This document shows, piece by piece, positions 811 to 63,220 of a stretch of 64,000 nt of DNA; position 1 is the stretch's first letter; each line of letters opens with the position of its first letter. The stretch is from Obrimoposthia wandeli (lineage: Eukaryota): NCBI GenBank assembly GCA_977020255.1, contig CDROCS010000288.1, positions 1,798,001 to 1,862,000 of the forward strand, written 5' to 3'. A model generated the notes under the pieces. The model ran no database searches. It saw nothing but the letters and a program-made list of their open reading frames with translations, and was not told where the DNA came from. The translations under genes were made by a program, and so were the position numbers.

Positions 811-904
811 CTGTGCTTCATTTATATTTCCCATATGGTATATTGTATTTATCAAATTATTACATTTTGTCGGTCCACTTCCTTTGTTTGGATAATGAAA
901 TCTA

Positions 905-1884: not shown

Positions 1885-2038
1885 GGTTTTCCCTATATTC
1901 TCATATGTTACTTTTCTCTTCCTCATTACTTGTGGTCCGTTGTTTACTTCTTTCTAGTGAAGTATCGAATTCACTAGCGCTTCCTGTGTCCTGTTTCACT
2001 ACGAGTTTCCCATACAGAAACTAGTGTAGTATTTCCTT

Positions 2039-2450
2039 TCATCTGTAGGTCAATCTCAATATCTTCATCTTTATCACTGAACTGTTGTTCCTTGAACTCT
2101 TTTTATTTGGCAATATTATTATTCCTTCAAACATAAGTATCACGCCCATCCCAATTATGAATGGACTACCACAATCTGTGAATATTCTTGCATTTATCTG
2201 CAATGCTTTTCCCTCAATAGTTAATTTACATTTCAGTGTTCCTTCTGATACTACATATGTTCCATTTACGTTGACAAATGTTTGTTTCCTATGACATACT
2301 TCTTCTATTTCTTTTGATGACAAGATTTTTTTACTCGGTACTGATACTGCAGAAACAGTATCGACCTCGGCAAGATATTTTCTTCCGTTCATTGTTACTG
2401 ATACTTGTGGTGGAGCATTTGGATTCTCATTAGATATCCTAGACTTCAGA
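2039..2450 (-). pseudogene. First aspartic-protease-like domain (PR1), in frame with the glycoprotein cytoplasmic tail
   Basis: VSVTMNGRKYLAEVDTVSAVSV (DTG changed to DTV), FVNVNG flap, PFIIGMGVI C-terminal motif, within ORF 2039..2779. Confidence 0.7.
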
Positions 2451-2699
2451 ATTCTTCTGGAATTATCTTCTTTATCTTTTTCCTCTGCCTGTAGAATTTC
2501 ATTATAGTTCACTCTATGCCATCTTATCATTAAAATTCCTCTTTCGAACTTTTCTTTCTCTTCCTTCAGTTCCTTCATTGGGTATGGGTTTGATGCTGAT
2601 TCTTTCTTGTCTTTTAGTGGAATTTTTGAATTTCCTGTATTTGGTATTTTTGCATAGTCTCCTGGACTATCGTTATCGTCGTTTCCGTCTCGGCGGTTC

Positions 2700-4716: not shown

Positions 4717-4752
4717 AATTGTTTTAGCGTAATCGCTTAATTTCGCCCAACC

Positions 4753-5790
4753 TCAGTTTTCGTCGATACGTTGTTGTAATACATTCTCAATCAGATACAT
4801 TGCTGCACTTATTCCTTGTTTGACTTCGTGAGCTTGACTCGTTCCTTCCGTCAATTGGAAACATAGGTATGTAATTGCTGTGATTAACTTTTTATAAGTA
4901 ATCTGATTTTCAAATAATCTCGCTAAAACTTCACCATCGTAGAATCTGTCTACTGATACATGATATCCCTGGTTTGTAGTCATTCTTTTTACTGCTGACA
5001 TTTGTGATCTAACTGCTCTAATCAAATTGTCTGTTATATCGGTAGTTTAATCTTTGTACATTTGGAACAACTTCGACTTTACTTGCCTGAGAATTCCTGT
5101 AAGTATGTCTTTATTTCACTCTGCACTATACTTCTCTAATGACGCTGCTAACTGTCCAATGCAGTGGTGTCTCTTCTCATCCGTCTGAAGTGCAGTTAAA
5201 ACATTTCGCAATATACTTCCATCCTTTCTAAGTCTTCAGAGTCCTCTTCGAAAATACTGATACTCAGCTTGATTCTCAGCTTGATCATACGGTTCATCGT
5301 TATATCGTATCTCTTGACTTTGTTCTGCTTCATTCTGCCCATCCTTCATTATCTACTAATTTCTGTTGTTTCACAGTGATGACATCAATTTTCTCTTCTA
5401 ATTAGTTTTCTATCAGATATCCAAACTCGACTGGTACATCTTCATCCTCCAGTGATCTTCCTTTATAATAAAACAACATATTCATTCCGTCTATTCCGAG
5501 TTTCTCTGCTAGTTTTTCGAACAGTTTTAATAGTTTGGAATAAGTTAAGTTTTTCGTGTATAATCTGTCCGGAAATTAATCAAAGTAAAAATTTCATCGT
5601 CCCTTTTTGATTTGATCTCTGTACGTAACGACCGTATCCTTTCAATAATCCTCGTGCTCTTTGTAGGTCAAGTTATCATGACTATATTTAACCAACTCTC
5701 CTCGCATTTTTTCCAATCTGTGTACTTTAATTGTTTGTAGTTTTACCAAAACTTCTGGAGCTTCGCTCGCTTCATCTAGCGGTTGATTAA
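4753..5790 (-). pseudogene. Unidentified decayed coding region between gag and the glycoprotein
   Basis: ORF 4753..5025 plus stop-interrupted frames with the same strand bias; no motif recognised. Confidence 0.35.
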
Positions 5791-5794
5791 ACAT

Positions 5795-6855
5795 TTATTT
5801 AGCTTCACTAATTATCTTTTTCACATTTTTCATACTCTTAGCATGTTTTGCTGCTTCTATATGACCAGTCATAGGTTGTACGTTACACGTTTTGTCTATT
5901 GGTGTCTCATACGCTTCTAGTATTCGGTTCATTAAATCATTCATCTCTTCTCTCGTGTGCAGCTTTTTCCCTTGTTGCGACAGCGTAAATGAATTCGCCA
6001 TTTTTGTATGTGGTGAATCTTTGATTATTCCAAACATCCGTTCGAATTTACTATCACTATCTTCAAAATCTACTTCGCGTCTAAGTTCGGTCTCGCGATT
6101 CCTATCGCTGTTATCATTTATGTAACTAAAATTTCCTTTCGGTTTTGGTGACCTTTCACGACTATTTGTCTCGTCAACATTATTATTACTATTATATCTT
6201 CCTGAATTATTGTATCTCTCAGCTCCTTGATGTCTGTCTGCATAATTATTGTATCTGTCTGGCGACTGTTGTCTATCCATATACTCGTGCGTGCGGCCAA
6301 GGTTCTCAAAACATACGCGCATTCATTCACGCTCTCGTCAGGTTTCTGTTTTTGTTCTCTCAAAATTCGCTTATTCACTTTTGCTAAGTCTCCCAATACC
6401 AATTTTTCAAAAAAAGCATCAGCACGTTCTGCTTCTGTCAAGTGTTTATACACTTTGAGTGCTAATCCTGTCAAATGCACCTGTACGCAGACACCTTTTT
6501 CTCTATCGTTCCATCGTTGAACGTATGCGCAACTCAAATATTCAGCGAGGAAGTCACAAATACTTTCCTCATCTCCTTTAAACTTTGTAATCTGCAATGA
6601 TCCCGAAACTTTTGGTCTCAGCGTTGCATTCAAAACGTGTGCCAACTGTTCTGCATTCATATTACCTAAGTTATTTCCTGCATTATTGCCTGGTTGAGCT
6701 CCTGCGTGAGCCATGTTTTCAGCTATATTTTCAGCTATTTCTTCAATATTATTCAAATTAACTTCCTCAATCTCTTTTAGGTTGGCAATTTTGATCTCTT
6801 CTTGATTTGATGCTTCAATAACTTCAATTTCTTCTGGGTTTACTTCACCAAACAA
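5795..6855 (-). pseudogene. Retrotransposon gag (capsid-like domain), frameshifted
   Basis: ITKFKGDEESICDFL..QRWNDREKGVCVQVHLTGLALKVY..LREQKQKPDESVNECAYVLRTLAAR, the typical Gypsy gag major homology region. Confidence 0.8.
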
Positions 6856-12884: not shown

Positions 12885-14920
12885 CTACAACTCTGTCTTG
12901 GCATCATCCTTCTTGCTGTCACCCTCAGCTCCTCCAGGTGGTGGTGGGGTTCCTCCTTGTTGCTGGTACAGCTTCGTCATGATGGGCTGTACCACATCTT
13001 CGAGCTTCTTCTTCTGAGCCTTGAGCTCCTCAGCCTCAGCATTGGCGTTCTTCTCGAGCCAGCTGATAGCTTCCTCGGCCGCCTTCACCACTATCTCCTT
13101 GTCGGCTGGAGTCAGCTTTCCTCCGAGCTTCTCCTTGTCATTGGTCTGGGTCTTAAGCGAGTAAGCGTATCCTTCCAGCTCGTTCTTGGCTTCGACCTTC
13201 TCCTTAACCTTCTTGTCCTGCTCGGCGAACATCTCAGCATCCTTGATCATCTTCTCAATATCCTCAGTGTTTAATCGGTTCTGGTCTTTCTGGATGACGA
13301 TCTTGTTCTTGTTACCAGTACCCTTGTCCTCAGCAGACACTTTCAAGATGCCATTGACATCGATCTCGAATGTGACCTCGATCTGTGGCACTCCACGAGG
13401 TGCTGGTGGGATTCCAGTTAGATCGAATTTACCGAGGAAGTGGTTATCCTTGGTCATAGGTCTCTCTCCCTCAAATACCTGGATGGTAACGGTGGGCTGG
13501 TTGTCAGCGGCAGTGGAGAAGACCTGGGATTTCTTGGTTGGGATGACGGTGTTCCTGGGGATTAACTTAGTCATGACTCCACCCACAGTTTCGATACCCA
13601 GGGTAAGAGGACACACATCGAGCAGAACAATGTCACTGGTATCCTCGGCACCACCAATGATTCCGGCCTGTACCGCAGCACCGAAGGCCACAGCCTCATC
13701 AGGGTTGATGCCTCTGCTAGGCTCCTTACCATTGAAGTACTCCTTCACAAGCTGCTGCACTTTGGGAATTCTGGTACTACCTCCAACCAGCACAATCTCA
13801 TGTACATCCTCCTTCTTCATGTCACCATCCTTCAGCACCTTCTCCACTGGCTTCATCGTGGACTTAAACAGGTCCATGTTCAGTTCCTCGAATCGAGCAC
13901 GAGTCAGTGTCTCACTGAAGTCATCTCCTTCAAAGAAAGATTCAATCTCGATTCTGGCGCTATGTGCGTTACTCAGTGCTCGCTTTGCCTTCTCTACCTC
14001 TCTTCTCAGCTTCTGGATAGCCCGATTGTCACCAGTGATGTCCTTACCCTTCTTCTTCTTGTACAACTTTCTGAAGTACGCCATCACTCTCTGATCGAAA
14101 TCTTCACCACCCAAGTGAGTATCACCATTGGTGGCAACCACCTCAAACACACCGTTATCGATTGTGAGCAGGGATACATCGAAAGTACCACCTCCGAGAT
14201 CGAACACTAGAATGTTCTTCTCGCCTCCCTTCTTGTCCAGTCCGTAGGCGATAGCGGCAGCAGTGGGCTCATTGATGATTCTCAGCACATTCAACCCAGC
14301 GATGGTTCCGGCATCACTGGTGGCTTGTCTTTGAGCATCATTGAAGTAGGCGGGAACAGTCACAACAGCATGAGTTACCTTCTTACCGAGATATGCTTCA
14401 GCAATTGTCTTCATCTTTCCAAGAACCATTCCAGAGATTTCTTCCGGTGCGAATTGCTTGGCCTCTTCACCAATATTGACCTCAATTACAGGCTTGTTGT
14501 TTTTGTTGATGACCTTGAAGGGGAAATGCTTCATGTCTTCCTGGACAGTCTTCTCCTGGAATGTGCGACCAATAATTCGCTTAGCATCGAACACTGTGTT
14601 CTCAGGATTGGTGGTCAATTGGTTCTTGGCGGCATCACCAATCAATCTCTCGCCTTCTGGAGTGAAGGCAACATAAGAAGGTGTGATACGATTTCCCTGA
14701 TCGTTGGCAATGATCTCAACACGGCCACCTTTGAACACTCCAACACTGCATTTTTAAATCAATTTTATTGTCAATAAAATAATCATTACCATGAATATGT
14801 TGTTCCGAGATCAATACCAATAACGGTACCGTACTCTTCCTTCTTCTTCTCCGTTTTCTCTTCAGTAGCAAATACCGACAGTATTGCTATCGCAAATATA
14901 AAAAAGAACTTAAGTTTCAT
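12885..14920 (-). CDS. HSPA5: ER Hsp70 chaperone BiP/GRP78, 663 aa; exons 14920-14790 and 14745-12885, 44-bp intron 14746-14789
   Basis: Signal peptide [18 protein letters not shown]; [12 protein letters not shown]^VGVF; Hsp70 signatures [14 protein letters not shown]-like and [13 protein letters not shown]; C-terminal KTEL; GT-AG intron restores the frame. Confidence 0.97.
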
Positions 14921-23144: not shown

Positions 23145-25008
23145 TTCCAGCCGGGATTCAGCCGGGATTCAACAAAAACAATTTTTTACTGAGAAATAAA
23201 ACTTCGATGGAACTGAAATTTTGCATGTAATTTGAGATCGATGTCTGGTCACCGTTTCCAAAGTTTCATTCAAAAATATTTATTTCTTCCGGAGATATTC
23301 TCCACCAACCCAGGTTCTACCAGCATTTATACATTTCTGAAACTAAATATCGAAATGTCAATTTCCGGCTCGCGCAACCGCCGAACACAAACCGCTGAAA
23401 TTTGGCAAGCAATTTGTGATCGATGTCTGGCCACCGTTTCCAAAGTTTCATTCAACAAAAAAGTTCAAGGGTCCAAAGATATGACTCAATAATCTTAAAA
23501 ACTTTATAAGACCTTGTCAGTGGTATATATAATTTTGTTAAATTTCTTAAAACCAAGCTATTTAGTGGGTTTAACACAATCTAATGTTAATTATTCAATC
23601 CGTTCAATGGTTCTAGAGATATGAGGTACCAAAAGTCTATATTTAGGGGAAAATGTTGAAGTATTAAAACAAAACATCTGATTCTTTCTAAAACTTAATG
23701 CAAAGTAGGAATAGATATTTGCAAGTGTTTAAATCCATCTGTAAGACAATCAAAGTTGTAATTGTTGCTAAAGTTTGGATCTAAAGGGCAAATGGGCAAC
23801 TCTTAGGAATCGTGGGACCATTATTGATGGAAAGGTATGGATAATTTTAATAAACAATGATAGCCATTTCCATTGGTCTTATTGGTATCTCTATTCTGTG
23901 TGAACTTTAACTTCATAGCACTGTCTAAATAACCTACACTGAGTGGTACATTTACTATCTCTGATATAGTGAGGGGAGATGTTGGTCAATGCGGATCTCC
24001 TCAACCACGAGTCATATTGACAAACGGCTTTTTGTATAGTGTTCAGGATACTCTAGTCTATGTTTCTGGAAGATTTCAATACGGGGGATATTATTGGGCC
24101 AATGTTTTATCAATGGTCAAAATATGGTACTACAAGGTTCATTTTCGATAATTTTCAATCCTAATGGAGCAATATGGATAGCACCATCGTGTTCCTGATC
24201 ATCGATATAGTATATAAGGAATATAAAAAATGTGAGGAAATATATTGGTAGAATGAATATATTAATAAGACAAATGGAAATGACTATCATTGTTTATTAA
24301 AATTATCCATACCTTTCCATCAATCCCACGTTTCCTAAGAGTTGCCCACTTGGCTTTTAGATCCAAACTTTAGCAACAATTACAACTCCGATTGTCTTAC
24401 AGATGGATTTAAACACTTGCAAATATCTATTCCTACTTTGCATTAAGTTTTAGAAAGAATCAGATGTTTTGTTTTAATACTTCAACATTTTCTCCTTAAT
24501 ATAGACTTTTGGTACCTCATATCTCTAGAACCATTGAACGGATTGAATAATTAACATAAGATTGTGTTTAACCCACTAAATGTTATGGTTTTAAGGAATA
24601 AAAATAAATTATATATACCACTGACAAGGTTTTATAAAGGTTTTAAGATTATTGAGTCATATCTTTGGACCCTTGAATTTTTTTTGTTGAATGAAACTTT
24701 GGAAATGGTGGCCAGACATCGATCACAAATTGTTTGCCAAAATACAGCGGTTTGTGTTCGGCGGTTGCGCGAGCCGGAAATTGACATTTCGATATTTAGT
24801 TTCAGAAATGTATAAATGCTGGTAGAACCTGGGTTGGTGGAGAATATCTCCGGAAGGAATAAATATTTTTGAATGAAACTTTGGAAACGGTGACCAGACA
24901 TCGATCTCAAATTGCATGCATAATTTCAGTTCCATCGGAGTTTTATTTCTTAGTGAAATAATATTTTATTTGAATCCCGGATGAATCCCGGATGAATCCC
25001 GGCTGGAA
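23145..25008. mobile_element. Fold-back / non-autonomous DNA element with ~740-bp inverted arms and a ~380-bp spacer
   Basis: Arms 23145-23883 and 24265-25008 are reverse complements (TTCCAGCCGGGATTCA...TGAATCCCGGCTGGAA); the same ORF appears on opposite strands (23232..23492 +, 24632..24910 -); no TSD identified. Confidence 0.85.
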
Positions 25009-33916: not shown

Positions 33917-35075
33917 AGTAGGTAGAAGGATGGAGTCTAGACCACTTGACCCCCCCTGTGTGCGCACAGAATGTTAAAGGATTTTTTCACCATAAGGGTG
34001 TCACACCATAAGGGTATATGTTGCCTCACCATAGAAATGTCACACCATGAAGGTATATGTTGACTCACCATAACGATGTCTTGCAACACCATAAGGGTCT
34101 GGCTCAGAAAGGTTAAGATAGAGGGGAGGGAGGAAGGGTCAATTGATCTAGTCTCCACCCTTCTTTGGTATACCATTAAAGGGTTGTGATCGTCCATAAT
34201 TTAAAGGGTCAGGCATAGTTTTGACTTGAAGGTTTTAAGGTATGGTCATGACCGTCTATGGTTGGCCATCACATCTAAAGGGTTGTGGTTGTCCATAAAT
34301 CAAAGGGTTAGACTCAGTTTTGACTTGAAACTTTGAAGGTATAATTAAGGTCAACTTTGGTTGGCCATCACATCTAAATGGTTGTGCTCGTCCATAAATC
34401 AAAGGGTCAATGTCAGTTTTGACTTGAAACTTTGAAGGTATAATTTAGGTCAACTATGGTTGGCCATCACATCTACAGGGTCATGGTCGTCCATAGGTCA
34501 AAGGGTCCGGCTAATTTTTTTTTTTTAAATATCAAGGTTTTAGTACATGGTTGTAATCATCTTTAGAAGGTGAATTCACCCATAAAGTATGGCCGTCCAT
34601 AAATCAAAGGGTCGAGCTATAGACCAAATCAAGTTTTAAATGTCAAGGTTTGAATACATGGTTGTAATCATCTTTAGAAGACGAATTCATCCATATATGT
34701 ATGGTCGTCCATAGATGAAGGGTTAAAGAAAAGTTGGAATTTCATAGTTTCAAGTACATGGTTGTATTTGTCAACATATTACGCGTTTATTCATGTAAAA
34801 TTTTTATGGTCGTTCACAAGGTAAGGGTTAGATTTGGCATAAATTAAGAAATTATATAGTGTTCAATCAATTATTCTATGTGAAAGTTCACTCTTAAAAG
34901 TTAAGGAATGTATTACGTAATCACACATACACTATTCTATGTGAAAATTTAGTATAAAGTTCACTCTTATCAGTTAAGGAATGTATTACGTAATCATACA
35001 CACACTATTATATGTGAAAATTTAGATCAATATTTTTTCCTAGGCTTACACATCCAAAGAATTATGTTAAAATTT
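33917..35075 (+). repeat. Polinton left TIR with internal tandem subrepeats
   Basis: Reverse complement of 45688-46537 plus extra subrepeat copies (e.g. GGTTGGCCATCACATCTAAAGGG units). Confidence 0.9.
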
Positions 35076-35136
35076 ATAGTAAATCAAAAATAAATAAGAA
35101 AGAAGTCAGAGAATAATACAAAATTAAACACATTTA

Positions 35137-38100
35137 TTATGTAATTTCATAATGTCCATAAGCGCGGCTTCTATTTTTCTCGATCCAATAGCGTTTGTCA
35201 TCTGATGAGCTGAGAGCAGTCTTTTGTGTTATGATTGTGTATAGTTGATGATTTATTGTTCCAAACTTCTTTTGTGGTATAGTATATGCATTACCGTTTT
35301 CATACACGTCTAAATATGTTTGATGTACAACCGTTGATCCCTTAAGATTTACTCCTTTTGCTTTATTATTTTCAAAGTCATCTTCAAATTTAAGTGAATT
35401 ACATTTACAAAGTAAGAAAATCCATTCTTTATACATTCTTCCTTCCGATTCATCTTTAAATAAACCTATTTTACTATTAAATTTATTAGAATATAATGGA
35501 TCATTCACATTATAATTTGACGTATCTAATAATCCATCTGCAATCATTTTTGGTAACAACTGCTTTCTTAAATTAATGTTTTTACATTCCAAAAAGAATG
35601 AGTCGGTATCACCGGCAACTATATTAATTGAACAATTGAATAAATTACGATATATTTGCAAATCATGATACTGAAGAGTATACATTCGTAATTTGCTAAG
35701 GTCTAGTACAGCTTGGCCTATATAATTTGGTCGATCGAGACAAATAAAGTCTTTTCTTAATAAAACAGCTATTAAATTATCATGAATTTCAATTGTTCGT
35801 TGAAACATAGGTTTGCTAGTATATGTAATTAATTTTGTAGAACTAGTGCAGATGCGAAGATTCAACCGTTTCTTAACATTTTCAACGGTCTTTCCATACA
35901 AACTAACATTTTTAAGTTTATAAAAATCTTTGTCACATTTATTCGTTGCTTGTGATCTCATTTCTGAATTATATTCTATATATTCTGCGAATATCTTAGC
36001 CTGAGAGAATTTTACTGCTCGATGAATAATTGTTACCACTGCTCCTAAACTAACATACATCTGCAATAGTCTCCAATGAATAACATAATGACTTTTTAGC
36101 GAATGCGTCATTAAAAGTTTTTCAACTTTTTTACCAGGTGGACATTTCTTTTCTGGAGCTATAGGAAGATCGTCTAAAAAGTCATGAAGGTTTTCTGGTA
36201 TTACCAAGTCTACTTCCATAACATAACCATATTCAATATGTTCCATGTTCACATTTTTCATTTCATGCAATATTTCGTTTAATTTTATATCATCAAGAAT
36301 CCATTCAAAATCTCCTTTTGGTAAAGGTTGATCAAGAGCCCATCCATATAAATTATTAACATCTATATATAAAAGACTTGTTTCTTCATCAGCGACTACA
36401 TGATGCTTATTGACAAATGTCATTCCTCCTCGTATACCCGAAGAAATCATGTTGTACATTTCAGGATCCTGCATCAGTTCAACCTTATGTTTTAACATTT
36501 TTAGAGCACTTGCCCAACTCAACCCAGGAATGCTAAAAAGTTAAGTGGTTCTAAACCATCTTCACTGAGAGCTTTTCTTCTGAATGTTTGAAACACGTCA
36601 GCTAATAAATATACGTCAGTCTTTAAGTAAACTAACATATAATCCAACATATTTCTACAATTGGTTATTTTCCAAACATCTTGTGCTTTTTGATATTCAG
36701 TGTCTGTGATTTTATCATTCCATTTTACTGGTAAACTTAACTTATTCTGGAGGACATTTAATGATGTAGCAAAATCATATAGGAATATTCCTTTGCCATC
36801 AATAAGTTTAGATGGAAAAACTGATCTTGTTAATGGAATAGTTGGTAATTTACCGGCTAAATTTTCCAAAGATGATTGCAAAAATTGCAAAGAATCTATA
36901 AATCTCAGAGTTATTTGACCTAATCTTACAATCATGGCTTGAAACATTTCCGTTGATTGTGGTATAATATTTATATCCCAGTCAGTAAATTTATTCAATG
37001 CATATTTTAAAATATGATGTAAATCATAACCTCTGAGATTATGAAACACAATAGGTAAAGTTGGACAAAGTTTTCTTGATAAATTACATTCATTGCATGC
37101 AGGATCTAGATACTTGCCAGTAAAGTGATCATGATCTTTAACATATTTTTCAGATGATTCGTGACATAAATAACATTCATCGGCATTGCTAAATGTACGA
37201 ATCTCTGCATTTGTTAAGGGAATCATTACGTTTTTAAGAGCATCTAAATACCATGGCAAAACCTTTTCTTTAGCCAAGTTCTCTATTGACTGAAGAAATT
37301 TAACTATGCAGTCATCACCAACATTATGTTGATACTGGGTTTCAATTTCATCTGTACTCATAAATAACATACCAGATGCGACAGGCATATGCTTTTGATG
37401 ATAACTCTCATCTGGTACTAATACAGATTCAAAATCAGCGTAAACGACATATTTCGGTGATATAGTTTTTGACCAATCGTTGAATTTAACGTACTTATTC
37501 TTAGGCATAGTATACATTGTAGTGCTTTCTTGATTATAGTCACATAAAACTTTATGCTTTTCTAATTACAAATCGGTTTTGAAACCATGTAAACACTTTT
37601 CACACCATTTTCTGCTAATTCTAGTCTTTCCAGTTCGAATATTTAATAGTCGGTTAAGACAACTTATTCCTATATAATGAAACCGTTCCTTGGATTCTAG
37701 TAACAATAAATTAACTATAGTTCCTTCCTTCATTTTTGATTGGTATACAACATCGATATAAGGATTCTTGATAACATCAGTTTTTGATTCTTTTTCACTT
37801 ACCTCGTTGAATATGAATACATTTATTATTATACCAGGATTTTGCCGTTCAAATTTTGATATATTTGATATTTTCATAGGCATGTCTTCGGTATTATATA
37901 CAAAATCATTTAAAAATCTTTCATAGTTGCTTGGTCTATTTCTATGTGATTCTATTTCATTATATTTAAGTATTGACAATATTGCATAAATAAAGCAAAG
38001 ATTATCAGAGTTTAGAATATTTATGACTGCTTTAGATTTTGTAAGAGAATTTGGTGATTTAATATATGAATGACCTGACAATGCACAAATTTGACTATAT

Positions 38101-38408
38101 TTAGTAGCTATAAATGCATATTCAAGTATATTCATCAATTTCCAACAACTACCCTTTTCTGAATATTCTTCAACTTTATTTTCCATTGTATCTTCCATTT
38201 CTGAAATTATAGCATGTGAAAAAATCATTGCTCGATGTGAAGCATACCATTCTTTAGTTTCTCCATCATTCTTTTCAAACCTCATTCTGATGATGTATTG
38301 AATCTTTGCATTTCCCATTAATTGCACTATTCTTTCTAGTTCATTTAATAATGAAACTGGAACCTTAAGACTTACAAGATTGAGATGATCTACTTTCATG
38401 GATATCAT
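35137..38408 (-). pseudogene. Protein-primed DNA polymerase B with an endonuclease-VII-like HDH..C..CN insert
   Basis: YADFE, HDHFTG..ACNECN, FHNLRGYD, DSLQFL, IRGG, YIDVNNLYGWA, YGKT, DTDSF motifs; in-frame stop at 37566-37568 and a frameshift near 36540. Confidence 0.93.
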
Positions 38409-38488
38409 TGAATAACTATTTTTTAACGATGTTTTAGTCTGTATATTGTCATTTTTTTTACGTTTTCGTGACGGAGTAGAAGCTGGAA

Positions 38489-38827
38489 TTACTTTATTGA
38501 TGGTTCATTAATTATATCAGTTCTTTTGCTTAAAACCGGTACTTTAAATAATGTTTTCTTACTACCATTTTTATATTCTTTTAAATGACTAATATGTCGA
38601 CTATAAAAGAAGTTGTAATCAACATTTTCAGTGCTTAAACATTGTGGACATATGAAATAATTTATTCTTTTGTATGAATAACCATAATAATTTTTCATGA
38701 TATCATGACAGACTTGAGGATTAAAATCTGTTTCCGATGAACAATAATTTGAATAAGTTTTACATATACTCATCTGATGATATGATTGGTATTGAGACAT
38801 TGATTGATTTGATTGGACTTGAGACAT
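38489..38827 (-). CDS. Polinton hypothetical protein with a CPQC..H motif
   Basis: Intact 112-aa ORF divergent from the TBP-like gene. Confidence 0.5.
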   Translation of the reverse strand: MSQVQSNQSMSQYQSYHQMSICKTYSNYCSSETDFNPQVCHDIMKNYYGYSYKRINYFICPQCLSTENVDYNFFYSRHISHLKEYKNGSKKTLFKVPVLSKRTDIINEPSIK

Positions 38828-38899
38828 TTTGATCTAAAAAAATAAATAAAAATAAATATATATATATATAAATACAATAATTTAATTATTTTACTTACA

Positions 38900-39364
38900 A
38901 TGTTAACAAATATTAATTATAAAGGAATTTGCTTAGATGATGTATCCAAATTAAAATTTCGAACACGACCAGAACAATACGTTTATAAAGCCAAAGATTA
39001 TACAATACTTATTTTTAGAAATAAGAAATGCAGGATTATGGGATGTAAGGTACCTATTAAAAATATTTCTTACCCTTTAAGAATAAATATACTTGGTATT
39101 CAATCAATTACGGTATGTGAAAATTTAGATCAAAGTATCAATCTATTTAAATTATGGAATGTGTTACGTAATACATGTTCATTTGACCCTGAGGTTTTCC
39201 CAGGCTTAAGATTAAATATTTTCAATCCATTGTGTGTAAATATTTTCACATCTGGAAAGGTCGTAATTTTAGGTATTAGAAATTTAGATTTTCAAAATCA
39301 AGTTAACGATATCATGACATACATTAAAAAAATTTTATATAAATACGAAACAATTTCTAATTAA
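38900..39364 (+). CDS. TATA-binding-protein-like protein (two-repeat TBP fold), Polinton-encoded, intact ORF
   Basis: TNINYKG..TILIFRNKKCRIMGCK (repeat 1); IQSITV..SFDPEVFPGL..VNIFTSGKVVILG (repeat 2, hallmark of TBP: YEPELFPGL..LIFxSGKxVxTG). Confidence 0.85.
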   Translation: MLTNINYKGICLDDVSKLKFRTRPEQYVYKAKDYTILIFRNKKCRIMGCKVPIKNISYPLRINILGIQSITVCENLDQSINLFKLWNVLRNTCSFDPEVFPGLRLNIFNPLCVNIFTSGKVVILGIRNLDFQNQVNDIMTYIKKILYKYETISN

Positions 39365-39379
39365 ATCATTCAATTTTAA

Positions 39380-39730
39380 ATGTCTTATAAAGCTGTTCAA
39401 AAGTATTACGAGTATGATATGTTCTTCTTGGCATCTGCATGGATTCATCCAATGACTATGCCAGTGACATTATCGAAAACTTCGTACAATTACCGAGTCT
39501 CTGATTTTGACAACAAAGACATTCAACAACTCAATGATGTCATCAAATATTTGAAGATTGACGTTGAACTTGAGAATGAGGGTATATTTATGCGCGGAGA
39601 TAAGTGTAAATTTTATGATTGTTCCGGAACAAAGATTTCGGATAATCAAGAAGATGGAAGAAGTTGGATGCTCGAAATAAAAATTCTCGGATATAAAATA
39701 AATAAAAAGAATCAAACAACTCTCATCTGA
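39380..39730 (+). CDS. Polinton hypothetical protein
   Basis: Intact 116-aa ORF between the TBP-like and ATPase genes; beta-rich, function not recognised. Confidence 0.5.
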   Translation: MSYKAVQKYYEYDMFFLASAWIHPMTMPVTLSKTSYNYRVSDFDNKDIQQLNDVIKYLKIDVELENEGIFMRGDKCKFYDCSGTKISDNQEDGRSWMLEIKILGYKINKKNQTTLI

Positions 39731-39839
39731 AGGATTCATACAGCGACCGAATATTTTGATGTTTAATAAATAAATATTTAATAAAATGTTGTTATTGTTA
39801 TAAACATGGACTTATTCTGATATATTTATTTTATATTAA

Positions 39840-39873
<34 letters not shown>

Positions 39874-39875
<2 letters not shown>

Positions 39876-40504
39876 GTTATTAACAAACAATTCGACTTTT
39901 CAAGTAGTAGGACCAAGTGGTAGTGGAAAAACTTTATTTGTTTGTAAATTATTAAATTCAAAAATGTTTAAAAATAAATTTAATAAAATATATTGGCATC
40001 AAGGTGGTGACGGAGAAGCTGGTTTAACAAACCAAGAATTTAATAAAATAAAAAAACATTAAGATTATTAACGGTTTTGATGAAAATTGGACTACAAGAC
40101 TCGTAAAAGGTGATGTAATTGTTATTGATGACTTATATCAAGAGGCTAACAAAGAATATGATTTTAATGATTTATTTACAAAAATTGCAAGACATAGAGA
40201 AGTTACTGTAATTTTTATAACCCAAAATTTATTTCATCAAGGAGGAAATCATCGTACTCGTAATCTTAATGTACATTATTTGATTTTATTCACAAATCCT
40301 AGAGATCAAACAGTGATAGATTTTATTGCTCGTCAAGCATTTCCTCATAACAAGAGTTATTTAATTGATGCGTTTCATGATGCTACATCTTTACCTCATG
40401 GTTATTTATTTTTAAATTTTACTCTATCATGTCCTGATGATTTAAGAATTGTTACTGATATATTTAACCGTAATGGTATTACAGTCTATAAACAAAATAA
40501 ATAA
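39874..40504 (+). pseudogene. A32/FtsK-like packaging ATPase, premature stop at 40060-40062
   Basis: Walker A VVGPSGSGKT, Walker B IVIDDL, KIARHREVTVIFITQNLF, YLILFTNPRD. Confidence 0.9.
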
Positions 40505-40524
40505 TAATAAAGTTTTAAAATAAA

Positions 40525-40935
40525 ATGAATTTTAAAAAGAGTATTTTTAAACATAGTAAAAGGACAGATAAAGATGAAGTTAAAAAATTAATAAACACTG
40601 TATTATATGATCGTAATAATATTGAATTTTCAAAAAGTTTACCTTATTTTAAAACCTTAATTGACGTATCAAAAACGAATAAAATGAAAATATTGAAATC
40701 ATTTCCAATTTATGTAGTTGATGATTTAATAAAAATTTTAAATAAAATAATTTATGGTAAAATTAAACCTGATCCTAATATTTTAAAATATAAAAATTCA
40801 TTAATAAATTTAGCAAATTCACGTGGTAAAATTAATAAGAGAAACATTATTTACAATCAAAATGGTGGATTCCTATTGGCCATACTGCCCGCTATAGCAT
40901 CAGTAATAGCTGGTCTTATAAGTTCAAGAAGTTAA
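40525..40935 (+). CDS. Polinton core/cement-like protein ending in an adenovirus pX-like GGFL..I motif
   Basis: C-terminus NQNGGFLLAILPAIASVIAGLISSRS. Confidence 0.6.
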   Translation: MNFKKSIFKHSKRTDKDEVKKLINTVLYDRNNIEFSKSLPYFKTLIDVSKTNKMKILKSFPIYVVDDLIKILNKIIYGKIKPDPNILKYKNSLINLANSRGKINKRNIIYNQNGGFLLAILPAIASVIAGLISSRS

Positions 40936-41063
40936 AACTATGCAATACTTTCGTTTTATACAAACATATAAACAGATTAAAATATATTTAACTTTTATAA
41001 TAATGGGGATAAACAATACAAAGTTGTCTAACTTATTTATAAATTTTAATTCTTCATGCTGCA

Positions 41064-42090
41064 ATGGAAAAGATTTGGAACAATCCAGAAGATCCAGACG
41101 GGTATACAGGGTTAGAAAAATTGACAAAAAGAGTCAAACAATCAAAAGCAAATACACAAAAATGGTTAAGAAATGAATTATCATATAGTTTGAATAAACC
41201 TTTAAGACGTAAATTTCCTACTAGATCATATAAAACTAATGGTATTAATTCCTTATGGCAGATGGATTTAATGGAAATGATACCTTATTCTTCAGTAAAT
41301 AACGGATTCAAGTATATTTTAACTTGTATTGATGTATTTAGTCGTTTTGCAAGGGCAGTTGGTATTAAATCAAAATCGGGTATTGATTTATTACATGCAA
41401 TAGAATCTTTAATTGTTGATGATGTACCAGTAAATATCCAAACCGATGAAGGTAAAGAATTTTTTAATTCACATGTTAAGAAATTATTTAAAACTGAAAA
41501 TATCAATCATTATTCAGTATATTCTCAATATAAAGTTGCAGTATTTGAAAGATTTAAATAGAACGTTAAGAGAATGGTTAAAGAAATAGTTTACTAAACA
41601 AGGTAATAAGAAATGGGTGAATGTATTACCAAAAATTATTTATGCTTATAATAATTCTAAACATAGAGGTTTAGATGGTTTAAAACCTGTAGATGTAAAT
41701 AATAAAAATGAATTTGATATTTTGTTGAAACAAAATCTAAAAGAAAAGAAAGTTAAATCTAAATATAAAATTGATGATTATGTTCGAATATCAAAAATAA
41801 GTACAAGTCCATTTATTAAAAATTTTAATCAAAATTGGAGTGATGAGGTTTTTCAAATTCATGATATTAATTATAAACAAAATCCAATAATGTATATTTT
41901 AAAAGATATTGATAACGTCATCATCAAAGGAAAATTTTATAAACAAGAGTTACAATTAATTGATAAACCTAAACTATATCGAATACAAGAAATTTTAGAA
42001 ACTAAAGGTCGTGGTAAGAATGAACAATATTACGTAAAGTGGCACGGATACTCTGAACCTTCTTGGATATTTGCTTCTCAAATTGAATAA
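41064..42090 (+). pseudogene. Retroviral-like DDE integrase with a C-terminal chromodomain-like region; frameshift at ~41557 and stop at ~41586
   Basis: LWQMDL, YILTCIDVFSRF, IQTDEGKEF, ERFNRT, YRIQEIL..YYVKWHGY..SW. Confidence 0.92.
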
Positions 42091-43103
42091 TGTCAAAATA
42101 TATTATTTTACCTAGTAATAGTTGTCCAAGTACTCAACCTAACAATACAGCCAATCAATTTACTGTAGATTGGGAAAACTCTCTAAATTTAGATGGTGAA
42201 TGGGAGGTTGCCTTGACTGAATTTGTATTTAATTATACTCCTTTAACAATACAAACTAATTCAAAAATACTTTATAAAATGGAAAAGATAAAAATGAAAA
42301 TTTTCGATGTATCTTTTGCAATTTTAAATGGATTAATTTTTAATAATTTAAATAATGTTTTCAATTTCAAAATTACAAAGGATGAAAAATTAGAAATAAG
42401 TACAATTAACAGTATTCATCGAATGTTGTTAAAATTCAAAACTTTAGAAGAATCAAAAATTATAGGTTTTAATGAAATACAAAAAATTTCTAGTCATGTT
42501 ATAACAAGTGATGAAATTGTTGACATAAATAAAAATATTCATGCTAAAATGAGAATTACAATTTATTCTTTAGCTGAATATGAATACGAAATAAAATTTA
42601 ATCAAAATTATTTGATACAAGATAGTTCTTCATTATGTAATATTATAGCCAGTAAATGTAATGAAATTTTTAAAAGCTGTAATATAGATTCAAACGGATT
42701 ATTTGATATTTTAATAAAGAAAAATGTAAAATCAGTTTTATTTGACCAAAAACTTGCATCTTTATTAGGTTTAAATAATGTTTTCTTTGAGAAACGAATT
42801 AAAGGTTTTCAAGAACCAACACTTTCCAGCTCATATAATCAAATGTATATTTATACTAGTTGAACAGATTCTGTCTTAGTAGGATCTGATTATGTTCCAC
42901 TGTTAAAGTCTATTTGGTTAAAATCATTAAAATATCGATATGGAGATGTAGTAAATGTTAAAATTGATAATCCAATGTACTTGAAAATGAGAGATTCAAG
43001 TATTAATAGAATCGAGGTAAATATACGTGATGATTCTGGTAATTTAATTCCATTTTCATATGGAGCAAAAACTAGTTTAACTCTTCATTTACGTAAAGTA
43101 TAA
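42090..43103 (+). pseudogene. Minor capsid (penton-like) protein, premature stop at 42861-42863
   Basis: YIILPSNS..NNTANQFTV..LNLDGEWEVALTEF; reads on in frame YIYTS*TDSVLVGSDYVPLLK..IEVNIRDDSGNLIPF..LHLRK. Confidence 0.85.
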
Positions 43104-43139
43104 ACAATATAAATATATTTAAAATATAAAAATATAAAA

Positions 43140-43544
43140 ATGAATACATCAATTATAAAATTTTATAGCAAAAGTCAACAGGGCGGTGAACTTCCCTATT
43201 TCATTGGTAAGCAATATGGATCTAGTTGGTTTCAAACTATTTCTAGATTAGCTATTCCATTGTTAAAAAAAGTTGGTTTATCAGCAGCTACAAGTGCTGC
43301 CAATGTAATTGGTGAAACGGTAGGAACTGCGTTAACAAATCCAAAAAACATAATTTCATCTCTCAAAGAAAATACAATCAAAGAAGTCAAAACTTTGATT
43401 CCAAAATTAAAAAATAATGCTGTTGATAGTTTAAATAAAGTCGCAAATTGTGTTGAACAAAATGGAAAGGGTCTTAAACGTAAAAGAAATAATTTAAATA
43501 GTATAAACAAACGTCTTAAAGGTACTATTTTCCAAAATGACTAG
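43140..43544 (+). CDS. Polinton core protein (pVII-like, QxGG motif)
   Basis: FYSKSQQGGELPYFIGKQYGSSWFQTISRLAIPLLKK. Confidence 0.65.
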   Translation: MNTSIIKFYSKSQQGGELPYFIGKQYGSSWFQTISRLAIPLLKKVGLSAATSAANVIGETVGTALTNPKNIISSLKENTIKEVKTLIPKLKNNAVDSLNKVANCVEQNGKGLKRKRNNLNSINKRLKGTIFQND

Positions 43545-44757
43545 TATAAAATCTGAATTGTGTATTTTCGATAGACCACTACCTCAAGTAGTGATTGAAA
43601 ATTCATGTTTTGAAGAAATATTTCCAATCAATTCAATTACTGGAAAAAATTTAAATGACATAGAATTTAATATTCATGCATCTGAAGAAGATTATCTGGA
43701 TTTGAATGATACTTTGTTAAATATTAAATTAAAAGTTGTAAATGAAGATGGTACTGATTTAATGAAAGATAGTGATGTAACTCCAGAGAATTACATGTTT
43801 CAAACTTTGTTTAGAGATGTTATTCTAACACTTAATAATGTAAAGGTTGAAGGAGGAAATGGAACGTATACTCATAAGGCTATATTCGATACTCTTTTGA
43901 ATTTTAGTAGTGATACCAAGTATACTAACCTTGAATGTAGTGGGTATGATGATGAAGCAGAAAATCGTAAACAATGGATTAGTGAATCTAAAATATTTTC
44001 ATTATGTAATTCAATTAGATTAGATTTCTTTGAACAACCAAAATATTTGATTCCAGGGATTAATGTTCATTTGAGATTTATGAGAAATCAGCATAATTTT
44101 TCGCTCTATTCAGAAACTTCAAAACCAATTATTCAAATTCTAGATGCTAGATTGTATGTTAGAAGAGTAAAAGTTGATTCTTCAGTAATGATTGGACATC
44201 AGTTAGGTTTGCAAAGTCAGAATGCAGTTTACCCAATTAGAAAAACTCAGTTAGTAACATATTCAATTCCTCAGGGTTCTTTGGAACTTAATAAAGATCA
44301 AATATTCGGAGACTATCGTTTACCCAAGTTCATTTTGATTGCTTTCAAAGATACACCTCAGGGTGGTAAGGAATACAAAGTTAAATCTTCTACGTTCGAT
44401 ACATTTAATGTTTCAACAATATCATTAGCTAGAAATACATATTATCGAGAAACTTATAATCTAGATAATAACAATTTTTCATTAGCATATATGCAGTCAA
44501 TTATTCGAAATATGAATATTTTAGATAAAAACGTGAATAATGGTATCAGATTTTCTGATTTTAAATCAGGAAGTTCGATTTTCACTTTTCTATTAGCACC
44601 AGATTTTGATATAAACACTACTCAAGTGCCTAAAACTGGTAATTTAAGACTTGAAATTAGATTTAATTCTCCTTTGACCGTACCAACAAGTGTTTTGATT
44701 TACGGAATATTTGATTCCGAAATTCAGATTACGAAAAATAAAACTGTGATTGTATGA
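43537..44757 (+). CDS. Major capsid protein (double jelly-roll), intact 406 aa
   Basis: KSELCIFDRPLPQVVIE, YLDLNDTLL, KYLIPGINVHLRF, ARLYVRRVKV, GNLRLEIRF. Confidence 0.9.
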   Translation: MTSIKSELCIFDRPLPQVVIENSCFEEIFPINSITGKNLNDIEFNIHASEEDYLDLNDTLLNIKLKVVNEDGTDLMKDSDVTPENYMFQTLFRDVILTLNNVKVEGGNGTYTHKAIFDTLLNFSSDTKYTNLECSGYDDEAENRKQWISESKIFSLCNSIRLDFFEQPKYLIPGINVHLRFMRNQHNFSLYSETSKPIIQILDARLYVRRVKVDSSVMIGHQLGLQSQNAVYPIRKTQLVTYSIPQGSLELNKDQIFGDYRLPKFILIAFKDTPQGGKEYKVKSSTFDTFNVSTISLARNTYYRETYNLDNNNFSLAYMQSIIRNMNILDKNVNNGIRFSDFKSGSSIFTFLLAPDFDINTTQVPKTGNLRLEIRFNSPLTVPTSVLIYGIFDSEIQITKNKTVIV

Positions 44758-45130
44758 AGTAAGCTTATTGTATATTATATTCTTTATTAAAATTAGTACT
44801 TTAGAAATTCATAAATCCGGAAAAATATTATTGAATAACAAATTTAATGAAGTATATTCATTGGATAAAATTCCATCATTAAAACCCGGAGGTTACATTA
44901 TCAATACTCATACTTCAAATCTACCAGGCGAGCATTGGATAGCAATATTCGTTGACAGATTCGAGATTCGAGTGTTTGATCCTTTTGGATTCTATTATCC
45001 TGCAAAGTTGGTGTCTACACTTGAAAAAGAAAACATTCCAGTCTACTATAATCGAGTTAAATGTCAGAATCCATTAACTAAAAACTGCGGACCTCTGAGT
45101 CTTTTATGGTTGAAACTTCAACACAAATAA
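44750..45130 (+). CDS. Adenain-like cysteine protease
   Basis: IINTHTSNLPGEHWIAIF, FDPFG, Q....KNCG catalytic motifs. Confidence 0.88.
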   Translation: MYEVSLLYIIFFIKISTLEIHKSGKILLNNKFNEVYSLDKIPSLKPGGYIINTHTSNLPGEHWIAIFVDRFEIRVFDPFGFYYPAKLVSTLEKENIPVYYNRVKCQNPLTKNCGPLSLLWLKLQHK

Positions 45131-45181
45131 TTTTAAGTATAAACAAATATATCATTATAGTATTTCATTTTATTTTTTCAA

Positions 45182-45634
45182 ATGGCTTTTATTGATTTAG
45201 AATGTTTTATTGATAATAATGGAGAATATATTCCAAAGGAATTATGTATAATGTATGTGAATGATATGACTTGTCCATTTCATTACGTGTTTAAAAATCA
45301 AATACCATGGAGTAGTTTATCATTTACAGTTAAAAGAAAAAATCTATATTTGATAAATCATCATCATCAGTTATCCTGGTTTGAAGGTGAAAGCTCTGAA
45401 ATTCATATTGATGATGTTGAAACAATATTCTATGTTATGGATTCTATTGATGGAAAGAAAATTAATTTAGTGAAACGAATGTTTCCAAATTTGAGAATTG
45501 TGAATTATAATAAAAGTTTCAAAAATTTAAAGAAAATGCCAAAAAATATTCGATGTCTGTTTAGAAAACACGGAAAACATTGGGCTTATTTGAAATGTTT
45601 TTCTCTATGTATTGATTATATAAATTGTATATAA
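45182..45634 (+). CDS. Polinton accessory protein, DEDD-exonuclease-like
   Basis: FIDLECF..PKELC..HHHQLSWFEG pattern. Confidence 0.5.
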   Translation: MAFIDLECFIDNNGEYIPKELCIMYVNDMTCPFHYVFKNQIPWSSLSFTVKRKNLYLINHHHQLSWFEGESSEIHIDDVETIFYVMDSIDGKKINLVKRMFPNLRIVNYNKSFKNLKKMPKNIRCLFRKHGKHWAYLKCFSLCIDYINCI

Positions 45635-45687
45635 ATATATTCATTAATGATATTTGATTTTAATATATAATTTATGTTATTTAAATT

Positions 45688-46537
45688 AATTTTACCATAT
45701 TTCTTTAAATGCATAAGCCTGGAAAAAACTTTGATCTAAATTTTCACATAGAATAGTGTGTGTTATTACGTAATACATTCCTTAACTGATAAGAGTGAAC
45801 TTTCACATAGAATAATTGATTAAATACTATATAATTTCTTAATTTATGCCAAATCTAACCCTTACATTGTGAACGACCATAAAATTTTTACATGAATAAA
45901 CTCGTAATATATTGACGAATACAACCATGTACTTGAAACTATGAAATTCCAACTTTTCTTTAACCCTTCATCTATGAACGACCATACATATATGGATGAA
46001 TTCGTCTTCTAAAGATGATTACAACCATGTATTCAAACCTTGATATTTAAAACTTGATTTTGTCTTTAGCCCGACCCTTTGATTTATGGACAACCATACT
46101 TTATGGGTGACTTCGTCTTCTAAAAATGATTACAACCATGTACTAAAACCTTGATATTAAAAAAAAAAATTTAGCCCGACCCTTTGACCTATGGACGACC
46201 ACAACCCTTTAGATGTGATGGCCAACCATAGACGGTCATGACCATACCTTAAAACCTTCAAGTCAAAACTATGCCTGACCCTTTAAATTATGGATGACCA
46301 CAACCCTTTAGTGGTATACCAAAGAAGGGTGGAGACTATATCAATTGACCCTTCCCCCCTCACCCTATCTTAACCTTTCTGAGCCAGACCCTTATGATGT
46401 GGCAAGACAACCTTATGGTGAGTCAACATATACCCTTATGGTGTGGCAAGACACCCTTATGTTGAAAAAAAATCCTTTAACATTGTGTGCGCACACAGGG
46501 GGGGTCAAGTGGTCTAGACTCCATCCTTCGACCTACT
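45688..46537 (-). repeat. Polinton right TIR
   Basis: Reverse complement of the left TIR, with fewer subrepeats. Confidence 0.9.
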
Positions 46538-61907: not shown

Positions 61908-63220
61908 ATGGCCGTACCAGAACCACCTATTGTACAAATAAACAACGAACAAATAATCAATCAACCTCAAATAATGGCTGAACATAAGTTAAATGTTCCA
62001 TTAGACGCTTTCAATGGCGATAAATCTTCACTACCTGAATTTTTAAATAGATTTGATTCATTTGCTCAGGCATTTGAATGGACTAATGTAGAGAAACTTA
62101 GGGTTTTCCGGCGTATTTAAAGGGCACTGCCTTAACAATTTATAGAGGATTAACTAATGAACAGAAAGACACATGGGACCATTTGGTCCAGAATTTTCAA
62201 AATATGATTTTAGGAGCACAGTCTGAACAAAATTACCTTAACCAATTTAGGCAACGTGAACAACATATGGGAGAACCCACAAATATCTTTGCAGTTGAAT
62301 TACGAAGATTAGCCTTAAAATCATTTCCCGGAATTGAGGAAGTCTTAAGAGAACGCTTACTCCTACATCAGTTTCTATATGGGCTAAACAATAAAATAAA
62401 AAATCACCCAGCACTACTAGAAGTAAAAAATTTTCAACAGGCTGTAAATAAAGCTCAACTTGTAGAAACAAGATTAAACATGTTACAACAATCTGAAGTT
62501 TCAGTATTAACCTTTGAAAAAATACAAAGACCAACAACACCACCAAATTTCAATCAAACTCAAAACTATAACTCAAACAGACAATCTAATTACCAAAACC
62601 AACAACAATATACACCACCGACAAATAACTTTTATAGAAATCAAACAAACAGAAACTATACAGACTCACAAATTACACAAAGACCTTTCCAGAAATGTAC
62701 AAATTGTGGACTACAAAATCACACAATAGAAAATTGTCATAAAATAACCAACAACAAATTTTGTAGATTTTGTAAAAAAGACAATCATACTATTGAAACT
62801 TGCCGAAAATTGTTATGCAGACAAAGTAATAATATAAGACCACAAAATAATAACTTTAATAATCCAAATAATAATTTCAAAAATGCAAATAGTAATTTTA
62901 GAAGCCCATATAATAATTTTACTAATTTTAATAATCAAGCTAAATATTTTAATACTAATACAAAATTTTGTAAAATTTGTAATATGAAAAATCACAATAC
63001 TGATGAATGTAGCAAACTAAATACAATGATGAACCAATTTGGTAACACAACAATAAAACAACAACAACAACCACAACCACAGATTCAAAAAACAGTACAG
63101 TTTAACAATCAAAATCAACAATATGTTTACAGAAATCCAATACATACTATTGAAAACACTGATAACTCAAGAAACAGAAAAAGTCGCATTGATGAGATTA
63201 AGACAACAAGAAATAGATAA
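61908..63220 (+). pseudogene. Gypsy gag with three CX2CX4HX4C zinc knuckles; frameshift near 62120
   Basis: FNGDKSSLPEFLNRFD..W; QFRQREQHMGEPTNIFAVELRRLALKSFP..QFLYGL; CTNCGLQNHTIENC, CRFCKKDNHTIETC, CKICNMKNHNTDEC. Confidence 0.88.

Follow-up and report, generated by a model that had tools for sequence, protein, structure and literature searches.

The window analysed here, a stretch of 64,000 nucleotides of Obrimoposthia wandeli DNA (contig CDROCS010000288.1), contains a 12.6-kb Polinton at 33917-46537, bounded by terminal inverted repeats and a 6-bp target-site copy. The element encodes a TATA-binding protein (TBP), and a box, TATAAACA, lies at least 33 bases ahead of most genes of the clade to which this Polinton belongs. 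We found that the box is very probably a real and conserved element resembling a core promoter, judging from its conservation and placement, and that the element TBP is its likely reader. The features of the element are as follows (positions are those of the window; ORF, open reading frame).

33917..35040, left terminal inverted repeat, starting AGTAG, with the 6-bp target-site copy CACAGT before it
35137..38827, minus strand, protein-primed DNA polymerase B (pPolB) region (PF03175, E 1.4e-13), split into four ORFs here
38857..38874, (TA)7 tract ending in TATAAATA, canonical TATA class, 33-43 nt from the divergent ATGs at 38827 and 38900
38900..39364, plus strand, element-encoded TBP, 154 aa (PF00352, 48.8 bits; two-repeat saddle model)
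39338..39345, plus strand, TATAAATA within the end of the TBP coding sequence, 42 nt upstream of the 116-aa gene
39380..39730, plus strand, 116-aa gene, a conserved neighbour of the TBP gene
39799..39806, plus strand, TATAAACA box of the ATPase gene, 75 nt from the start here and 53-54 nt in 25 other copies
39844..39873, (TA)15 tract, a slippage expansion particular to this copy
39874..40504, plus strand, packaging ATPase, by motif (Walker A GPSGSGKT) and position, with a frameshift in this copy
40487..40495, plus strand, TATAAACAA box in the last codons of the ATPase, 38 nt upstream of the 136-aa gene
40525..40935, plus strand, 136-aa basic protein with a hydrophobic C-terminus and no Pfam match, by its features presumably core protein X-like
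40967..40974, plus strand, TATAAACA box, 36 nt upstream of a hidden small ORF
41003..41176, plus strand, conserved small ORF that starts Met-Gly and has Cys-Cys, overlapping the integrase start in another frame
41064..42090, plus strand, rve integrase (PF00665 above cut-off), interrupted by stops here and containing TATAAACAA at 41872 and 41938
42090..43103, plus strand, minor capsid protein, penton-like, by position, without Pfam match and with one internal stop
43099..43107, plus strand, TATAAACAA box overlapping the minor-capsid stop, 41 nt upstream of the 134-aa gene
43140..43544, plus strand, 134-aa gene with an amphipathic segment
43502..43510, plus strand, TATAAACAA box within the 134-aa ORF, 35 nt upstream of the major capsid ATG
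43537..44757, plus strand, major capsid protein, 406 aa, by size, position and conservation, without Pfam match
44754..45130, plus strand, protease, which by its motif we take to be of adenain type, with a predicted 38-nt GT-AG intron at 44759-44796; nearest box 144 nt upstream (44610)
45138..45146, plus strand, TATAAACAA box, 44 nt upstream of the 150-aa gene
45182..45634, plus strand, 150-aa conserved gene without Pfam match
45721..46537, right terminal inverted repeat, followed by CACAGC, a 5/6 match to the left target-site copy

With its terminal inverted repeats, 6-bp target-site duplication, pPolB and rve integrase (PF03175 and PF00665 over cut-off), the element has defining features of a Polinton. 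The further genes expected of a Polinton, for a double jelly-roll capsid, penton, ATPase and adenain protease, were putatively assigned by motif, size and position and not by family match; the Pfam scan covered the capsid ORFs and returned no match. In this copy, the genes for polymerase, ATPase, integrase and minor capsid are interrupted by stops or frameshifts. Homologs of the 112-aa ORF at 38489-38827 are fused in the polymerase's ORF in L083, one of the related loci described below. In the 1.35-Gb genome, at least 150 matches to the TBP were found, at 96-100% identity, and at least 102 to the capsid; the family is young and large.

On the plus strand of the 6.9-kb gene block, we found nine TATAAACA where 0.69 were expected, and none on the minus strand of the element; in 51 kb of host flanks there are 11, both strands counted. 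TATAAACAA occurs six times on the plus strand of the same block against 0.35 expected, and four of the six fall in the -60 to -31 windows, which cover 4.35% of the block (p=5e-5). Over the whole window, nine TATAAACAA were counted against 3.54 in shuffled sequences, and only 1/100 shuffles reached nine. An earlier note on this DNA had proposed a positionally fixed motif upstream of the Polinton genes as a target of the encoded TBP, with enrichment over shuffled sequence as one check, and these counts agree with it. Its positions are exact, namely TATAAACAA at 40487, 43099, 43502 and 45138 (38, 41, 35 and 44 nt before ATGs) and TATAAATA at 38867 and 39338 (33 and 42 nt), and three of the four TATAAACAA do lie in or over the end of the upstream gene (the ATPase end at 40487, the minor-capsid stop at 43099 and the 134-aa ORF at 43502). 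Five sites come in addition, TATAAACAA at 41872 and 41938 and TATAAACA at 39799, 40967 and 44610; for those at 41872, 41938 and 44610, the distance to the next annotated start is 144-218 nt. Nearly all of the 27-29 copies compared from the window's own family retain each TATAAACA site that was scored, which at 2.6% divergence is uninformative.

The (TA)n tracts, which had also been pointed out, fared differently from each other. The tract of the divergent promoter is present among 30 copies, with a length of 6-16 nt. The tract before the ATPase is 30 nt long here, compared with 8 nt in 24/25 and 6 nt in 1/25 of the other scored copies (four further copies could not be scored), and we rejected it as a functional feature, as a slippage expansion of this copy.

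For relatives, we used 57 metagenome loci fetched by capsid alignment, which form 41 clusters and have at most 74% DNA identity to the window. In the cluster representatives, TATAAACA was found 104 times on the sense strand against 13.7 expected under a third-order Markov model, a 7.6-fold enrichment, and three times on the antisense strand against 8.2 expected; TATAAAA, TATAAAT and TATAAAG were not enriched (ratios 0.68-0.83). We then collected 107 starts, one per cluster and gene, whose alignment begins at most 18 residues from the query start and which offer 130 nt of upstream sequence and a Met no more than 12 codons away. The set excludes the 136-aa, 116-aa and polymerase genes, whose starts were unreliable, and it may include a few wrong starts, such as that chosen for the minor capsid of L067. 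ATAAACA and TATAAAC came out on top in an unbiased comparison of 7-mers across the 107 upstream regions. NATAAACR stood ahead of 93/102 non-TBP starts, compared with 15/1338 antisense windows of the same size, so that the conservation in family members by which the proposed motif could be checked is present. By gene, it was found ahead of the ATPase in 8/8, the integrase in 3/4, the minor capsid in 11/12, the 134-aa gene in 24/26, the major capsid in 30/34, the protease in 7/8 and the 150-aa gene in 10/10. Of the 93 sites, 75 have T at base 1, 12 have C, 3 have A and 3 have G; at base 8, 83 have A and 10 have G. The same pattern was found in five further families from the genome of the window; where their capsids were measured, identity to that of the window is about 48-58%. 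Scans of viral_contigs gave neither a capsid nor an ATPase relative, and their TBP matches were limited to six distant ones at 30-40% identity.

An origin of these words by chance in AT-rich DNA, or by protein-level conservation of Ser-Ile-Asn-Lys and Tyr-Lys-Gln, would fit a gene block of about 26% GC in which many sites lie in coding DNA. We give this explanation almost no weight, and the enrichment together with the antisense depletion refutes it, as does codon use: Ile-Asn is written ATA-AAC in 63/93 cases within 130 nt of a gene end, compared with 8/130 in gene interiors (p=1.6e-23). The same test on Tyr-Lys-Gln/His was uninformative (20/21 vs 1/2, p=0.17). The sites occupy all three frames as well as noncoding DNA, and the box is also found in loci of 40-44% GC.

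The position of the box relative to the downstream start was then analysed. TATAAAC was found 1-32 nt before none of the 107 ATGs, with a sharp edge at 33 nt; 53 of the relatives' sites lie at 33-59 nt and 22 at 60-119 nt. The description of the motif as positionally fixed thus holds for its near limit and not for the whole range. Thirteen clusters have the box 33-56 nt ahead of the 134-aa gene and ten have it 98-116 nt ahead, so that it was shifted between two positions yet kept. Animal TATA boxes begin at -30/-31 in Table 1 of PMC9504043, and given this, a floor of 33 nt is what would be expected of a TATA-type core promoter with a very short leader. A pyrimidine-A step is commonest at motif position 32, though weakly so (29/93 sites).

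TATAAA, CATAAA and GATAAA are variants of the poly(A) hexamer, and the word could in principle be a 3'-end signal of the upstream gene, or a joint 3'-end signal and promoter; 26/93 sites lie on the stop of the upstream ORF or in its last 39 nt, and a box lies near the end of the last gene in L082, L083 and L077. We regard this as very improbable. A poly(A) role is unlikely for 43/93 sites because they lie at least 40 nt before the upstream stop, where cleavage would cut coding sequence. The first base is A in only 3/93, C7 and A8 fall outside the poly(A) signal, and the sharp edge is fixed by the downstream ATG.

The invariant core ATAAACA also matches the forkhead consensus, RYAAAYA, and virophages and Polinton-like viruses have promoter motifs in common with their helper viruses. 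The core might accordingly be read by a host sequence-specific factor of forkhead type or by a late factor of a helper virus, with only an incidental link to the TBP. This is quite improbable in our judgement: GTAAAC, equally good for forkhead, stands ahead of only 6/107 starts, TGTAAAC is depleted (ratio 0.57), and position 8 is G in 10/93 sites. The strict strand and the 33-nt edge suit a core promoter better than an enhancer site, and spliceosomal introns speak against a cytoplasmic helper.

The spacing rule singled out an unannotated conserved ORF, the one at 41003. It lies in the same alternative frame over the integrase start in the window and in 22 listed loci (loci having no such ATG were excluded from this list), with a box 32-41 nt upstream in 20/22. 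Its Met-Gly start and Cys-Cys would be compatible with a possible lipid modification. As this ORF covers the start of the integrase, the integrase would be translated from a downstream ATG, which may limit it. In the protease, a donor and a frame-compatible acceptor were found in 25/35 loci examined, with a shortest compatible length of 37-53 nt. This predicted intron sits directly after the ATG plus two bases, and in 19 of these 25 loci a box lies 32-47 nt ahead of that ATG.

The TBP gene belongs to another promoter class. NATAAACR precedes it in 0/11 families, and a canonical TATA stands ahead of it in 6/11 families compared with 3/102 other starts; Fisher tests of the TBP-gene and other-start contrasts gave p=1.4e-5 and 2.9e-10, on related elements that are not independent. 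The canonical words are TATAAATA, TATAAAAG, TATATAAA and TATATATA, five of them at 33-38 nt and one at 57 nt. In PMC9504043, the canonical words of the TBP genes rank high among cellular TATA boxes, and TATAAACA appears once, at rank 18 in zebrafish. By the TATAWAWR criterion, TATAAACA fails, having C at base 7, and the box at 38867 fits. As the TBP gene lacks the private box and often has a canonical TATA, TATAAATA at 38867, midway between the divergent TBP and polymerase starts, most probably belongs to the host type and is likely a target of host TBP. The earlier note had taken TATAAATA as a variant of the same motif, which we rejected; TATAAATA is not enriched (4 vs 1.77 expected). The class of TATAAATA at 39338 is ambiguous, and two related families have GATAAACA at 37-41 nt there.

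Polymerase promoters are mixed, being canonical in the window and L072, private in L083 and L073, and of neither kind in L071. An early idea that the polymerase gene always lacks the box was rejected on account of L083 and L073. The proposal that the box serves late or structural genes is too narrow in that the ATPase, the 150-aa gene and the polymerase of those two relatives have it as well. At L083:10011, L082:4159 and L077:2492, the last gene has a box some 45 nt short of its stop, and this box faces the convergent polymerase gene; these boxes possibly drive an antisense or non-coding transcript. No instance of a different TBP variant paired with a box distinct from (T)ATAAACA came to light in the window's genome.

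The encoded TBP scores 48.8 bits against a curated cut-off of 22.9 (PF00352). Its structural model (pLDDT 96.6) superimposes on human TBP 1CDW with Z 13.6 and rmsd 2.5 A over 147 residues, and aligns with cellular TBPs along its full length, so that all 154 residues constitute the TBP domain. Both helices of the first repeat are absent from the model, which has no helix before residue 82. The alignment behind the model holds 98 sequences, hand-picked from search matches and of mostly unknown genomic context. Three intercalating Phe are kept (F39 in 97/98, F100 and F116 in 98/98), and the fourth position, located by repeat spacing, is Arg. The acidic C-terminal stirrup, which in TBP is used by TFIIB, is kept at the sequence level (E98 in 96/98, and E or D at 96 in 95/98). 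Mutation at I194, V203 and L205 of yeast TBP permits the reading of TGTA (PMC1636458). At these positions the family has R in 75/98, C in 78/98 and N in 98/98, and host TBP keeps I, V and L. An R (97/98) and an M (98/98) of the family presumably correspond to the positions of yeast V122 and T124. The DNA face is kept within the family and differs from that of the host, which suggests that the element TBP binds DNA with another preference. From the known structure of TBP, we infer that the first-repeat changes would select C7 and that the loss of the helices would free the protein from host regulators.

Among the TBP genes of L067, L136, L142, L148 and L198-L208, several families have a short intron-like stretch at the same codon; none was found in the window's family. 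Near decayed Polinton fragments, we also observed two intronless TBP-like genes with two full repeats, L156/L209 (G000:C60) and L157/L210 (G000:C1092), which are 37-38% identical to cellular TBP and are probably TBP-related paralogs of the host.

By Pfam search, we identified a second lineage of Polintons in this genome, with a PF21738 capsid, a PLA2-like domain fused to the integrase, a protein X-like gene and an A32 ATPase; copies lie at G000:C5437 (L195, L188, L189), C1961, C2441 and C1559. In 26 stretches from 10 copies, all TBP matches belonged to nested or adjacent elements of the TBP clade (L185, L192, L197), apart from one weak untraced match in L177 (E 0.2). The C5437 copy is bounded by inverted repeats and has no TBP; its polymerase carries a deletion. 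The box was found at 0/40 starts of nine gene types in this lineage, which has three box sites in 46.1 kb over both strands and whose ATGs are often preceded by TTTTAAAAA. The comparison of Polintons with and without TBP, another check that had been proposed, thus supports the association, within one TBP-less lineage.

Conservation, codon constraint, TATA-like spacing and absence from the TBP-less lineage together support the earlier note's link between a promoter-like box and the encoded TBP. We consider it reasonably probable, from these sequence comparisons, that host TBP expresses the element TBP, which then reads TATAAACA for host RNA polymerase II (Pol II). In this mechanism, the canonical TATA ahead of the element TBP gene, shared here with the divergent polymerase, would first be read by host TBP. 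The element TBP would then bind (T)ATAAACA, its altered residues relaxing base 1 and selecting C at base 7. Through its retained acidic stirrup it would recruit host TFIIB and Pol II, with transcripts beginning about 31 nt after the first T of the box. The packaging, capsid, protease and accessory genes would thereby be switched on jointly, and only when the element TBP is present. The view of a self-contained system has to be given up: no RNA polymerase or TFIIB gene was seen in the element, and the conserved GT-AG introns of the protease and of some TBP genes point to host nuclear Pol II. A bolder version, in which a clade-wide two-step cascade is run by one 154-aa protein that by itself steers TFIIB and Pol II of the host to a private (T)ATAAACA box, is advanced more tentatively, as a serious possibility rather than an expectation; here a minimal TBP would have shed the helices contacted by host regulators and changed at positions that reprogram yeast TBP.

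Alternatively, TATAAACA could be a weak TATA read by host TBP/TFIID, and the element TBP could compete, repress, or bind the termini in replication. The box is spaced like an ordinary TATA, a canonical TBP is intact in the host, and TATAAACA or ATATAAAC is among the top-20 TATA-position words in 3/14 organisms in Table 1 of PMC9504043. We consider this unlikely, as the elements conserve C7 and show no enrichment of canonical variants, 18/93 sites begin with C, G or A, the same elements use top-ranked canonical boxes ahead of their TBP gene, and the TBP-less lineage of the same host lacks the box.

Several observations weigh against reading of the box by the element TBP. Wild-type TBP has been crystallised on a C(-25) variant (PDB 1QN3) and can thus bind it, and TATAAACA is, with its zebrafish rank, a minor TATA-position word of cellular promoters (PMC9504043). 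In this copy, no box lies within 130 nt ahead of the minor capsid or protease. One of the four intercalating Phe has no recognisable counterpart, and DNA binding could therefore be weak. Neither promoter class was seen at 5/11 TBP genes, the early/late split is not clean with the box ahead of the polymerase ORF in L083 and L073, and no ORF of more than 28 codons follows the last-gene boxes of L082, L083 and L077. The p-values overstate certainty because related elements are not independent samples. The TBP-less control is a single lineage whose copies are 79-99% alike, so that joint inheritance of TBP and box, with no reading of the box by the TBP, may account for the link. The TBP is present in 5/57 relative loci, most contigs being too short to score it, and among these we found no relative that had lost it.

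The nearest known parallel is the viral TBP of beta- and gammaherpesviruses (KSHV ORF24, EBV BcRF1, HCMV UL87) with its TATTWAA late box, as described in 10.1101/2025.08.25.672222. Both systems have a viral protein of TBP fold with a polar DNA face and a minimal TATA-variant box ahead of particle genes, along with host-type early promoters and host Pol II, which on the Polinton side are presumed. ORF24 is large and multidomain, with its own N-terminal Pol II-binding domain and five viral partners, and is modelled as incompatible with TFIIB (10.1101/2025.08.25.672222), whereas the element TBP keeps the acidic C-terminal stirrup and consists of a 154-aa TBP domain without the Pol II-binding N-terminal domain. 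No partner of herpesvirus type was found, the 116-aa neighbour alone being examined, which has no family or fold match. By fold, the element TBP is far nearer to cellular TBP (E 1.7e-9) than to BcRF1 (E 1.8e-3), and in its box the differing bases are 7 and 1 rather than 4. The Polinton system would thus resemble the herpesvirus switch without being a member of it.

With cellular TBP (PF00352) and its TATAWAWR box, the element shares the saddle fold, three of the four intercalating Phe, the [YF]EPE[LI]FP stirrup and the spacing to the start codon. Cellular TBP differs in having both first-repeat helices, and the DNA face of the element TBP consists of family-invariant polar residues; unlike canonical TATA, the Polinton box carries C as its seventh base and accepts C, G or A as its first. 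Viral TBP homologs of Nucleocytoviricota and mirusviruses were matched by fold search. Most large DNA viruses with TBP-like genes bring a viral RNA polymerase, whereas none was seen in this Polinton, and spliceosomal introns are present.

In its terminal inverted repeats, 6-bp target-site copy, pPolB and rve integrase, and in the genes assigned to ATPase, protease and capsid, the element agrees with the Polintons, Mavericks and adintoviruses described by Starrett et al. 2021 (PMC8502044). The Fig. 5 legend of that paper carries a gene label 'TBP' for MELD viruses with adintovirus-like PolB; the word 'promoter' is absent from its main text, which gives the TBP gene no function. The passages of 10.1101/697771 on MELD viruses use the label with no promoter analysis. 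In a search of the literature on TBP, TATA or promoters of Polintons and Mavericks, with thin coverage of subscription journals, we did not find this system described; the available sections of PMC10558129 and PMC10680173 hold no description of it, and those of PMC1935006 and 10.1101/2025.06.30.662289 give general TBP background.

If the bolder version is true, the cascade would be the smallest known viral late-promoter switch, reached independently of herpesviruses. The protein would be a natural altered-specificity TBP, which would help to understand TATA read-out. Capsid expression of animal Polintons bears on whether these are active viruses or transposons only, and a defined box with a matching factor makes it testable. 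The spacing rule also aids annotation, as with the hidden conserved ORF and the true protease start.

The 116-aa protein encoded beside the TBP gene gave no homologs in a homolog search; its model has pLDDT 84.7, with Atlas matches below 0.9 and no match in Foldseek. Elsewhere in the window, 12885-14534 (minus strand) is a coding stretch ending KTEL that we take to be host Hsp70/BiP-like, and a MITE-like element with inverted arms of about 680 nt lies at 23148-24994. Decayed ORFs resembling those of long terminal repeat (LTR) retrotransposons (gag, protease and envelope-like, judged by eye) were seen at 292-6714 (minus strand) and 62204-63220 (plus strand), one of these stretches with an IAP/RING-like piece, also by eye. 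At L183:6153-9589 (minus strand), we observed an LTR retrotransposon with a Monjiviricetes-type fusion glycoprotein (PF24664, E 9e-49).

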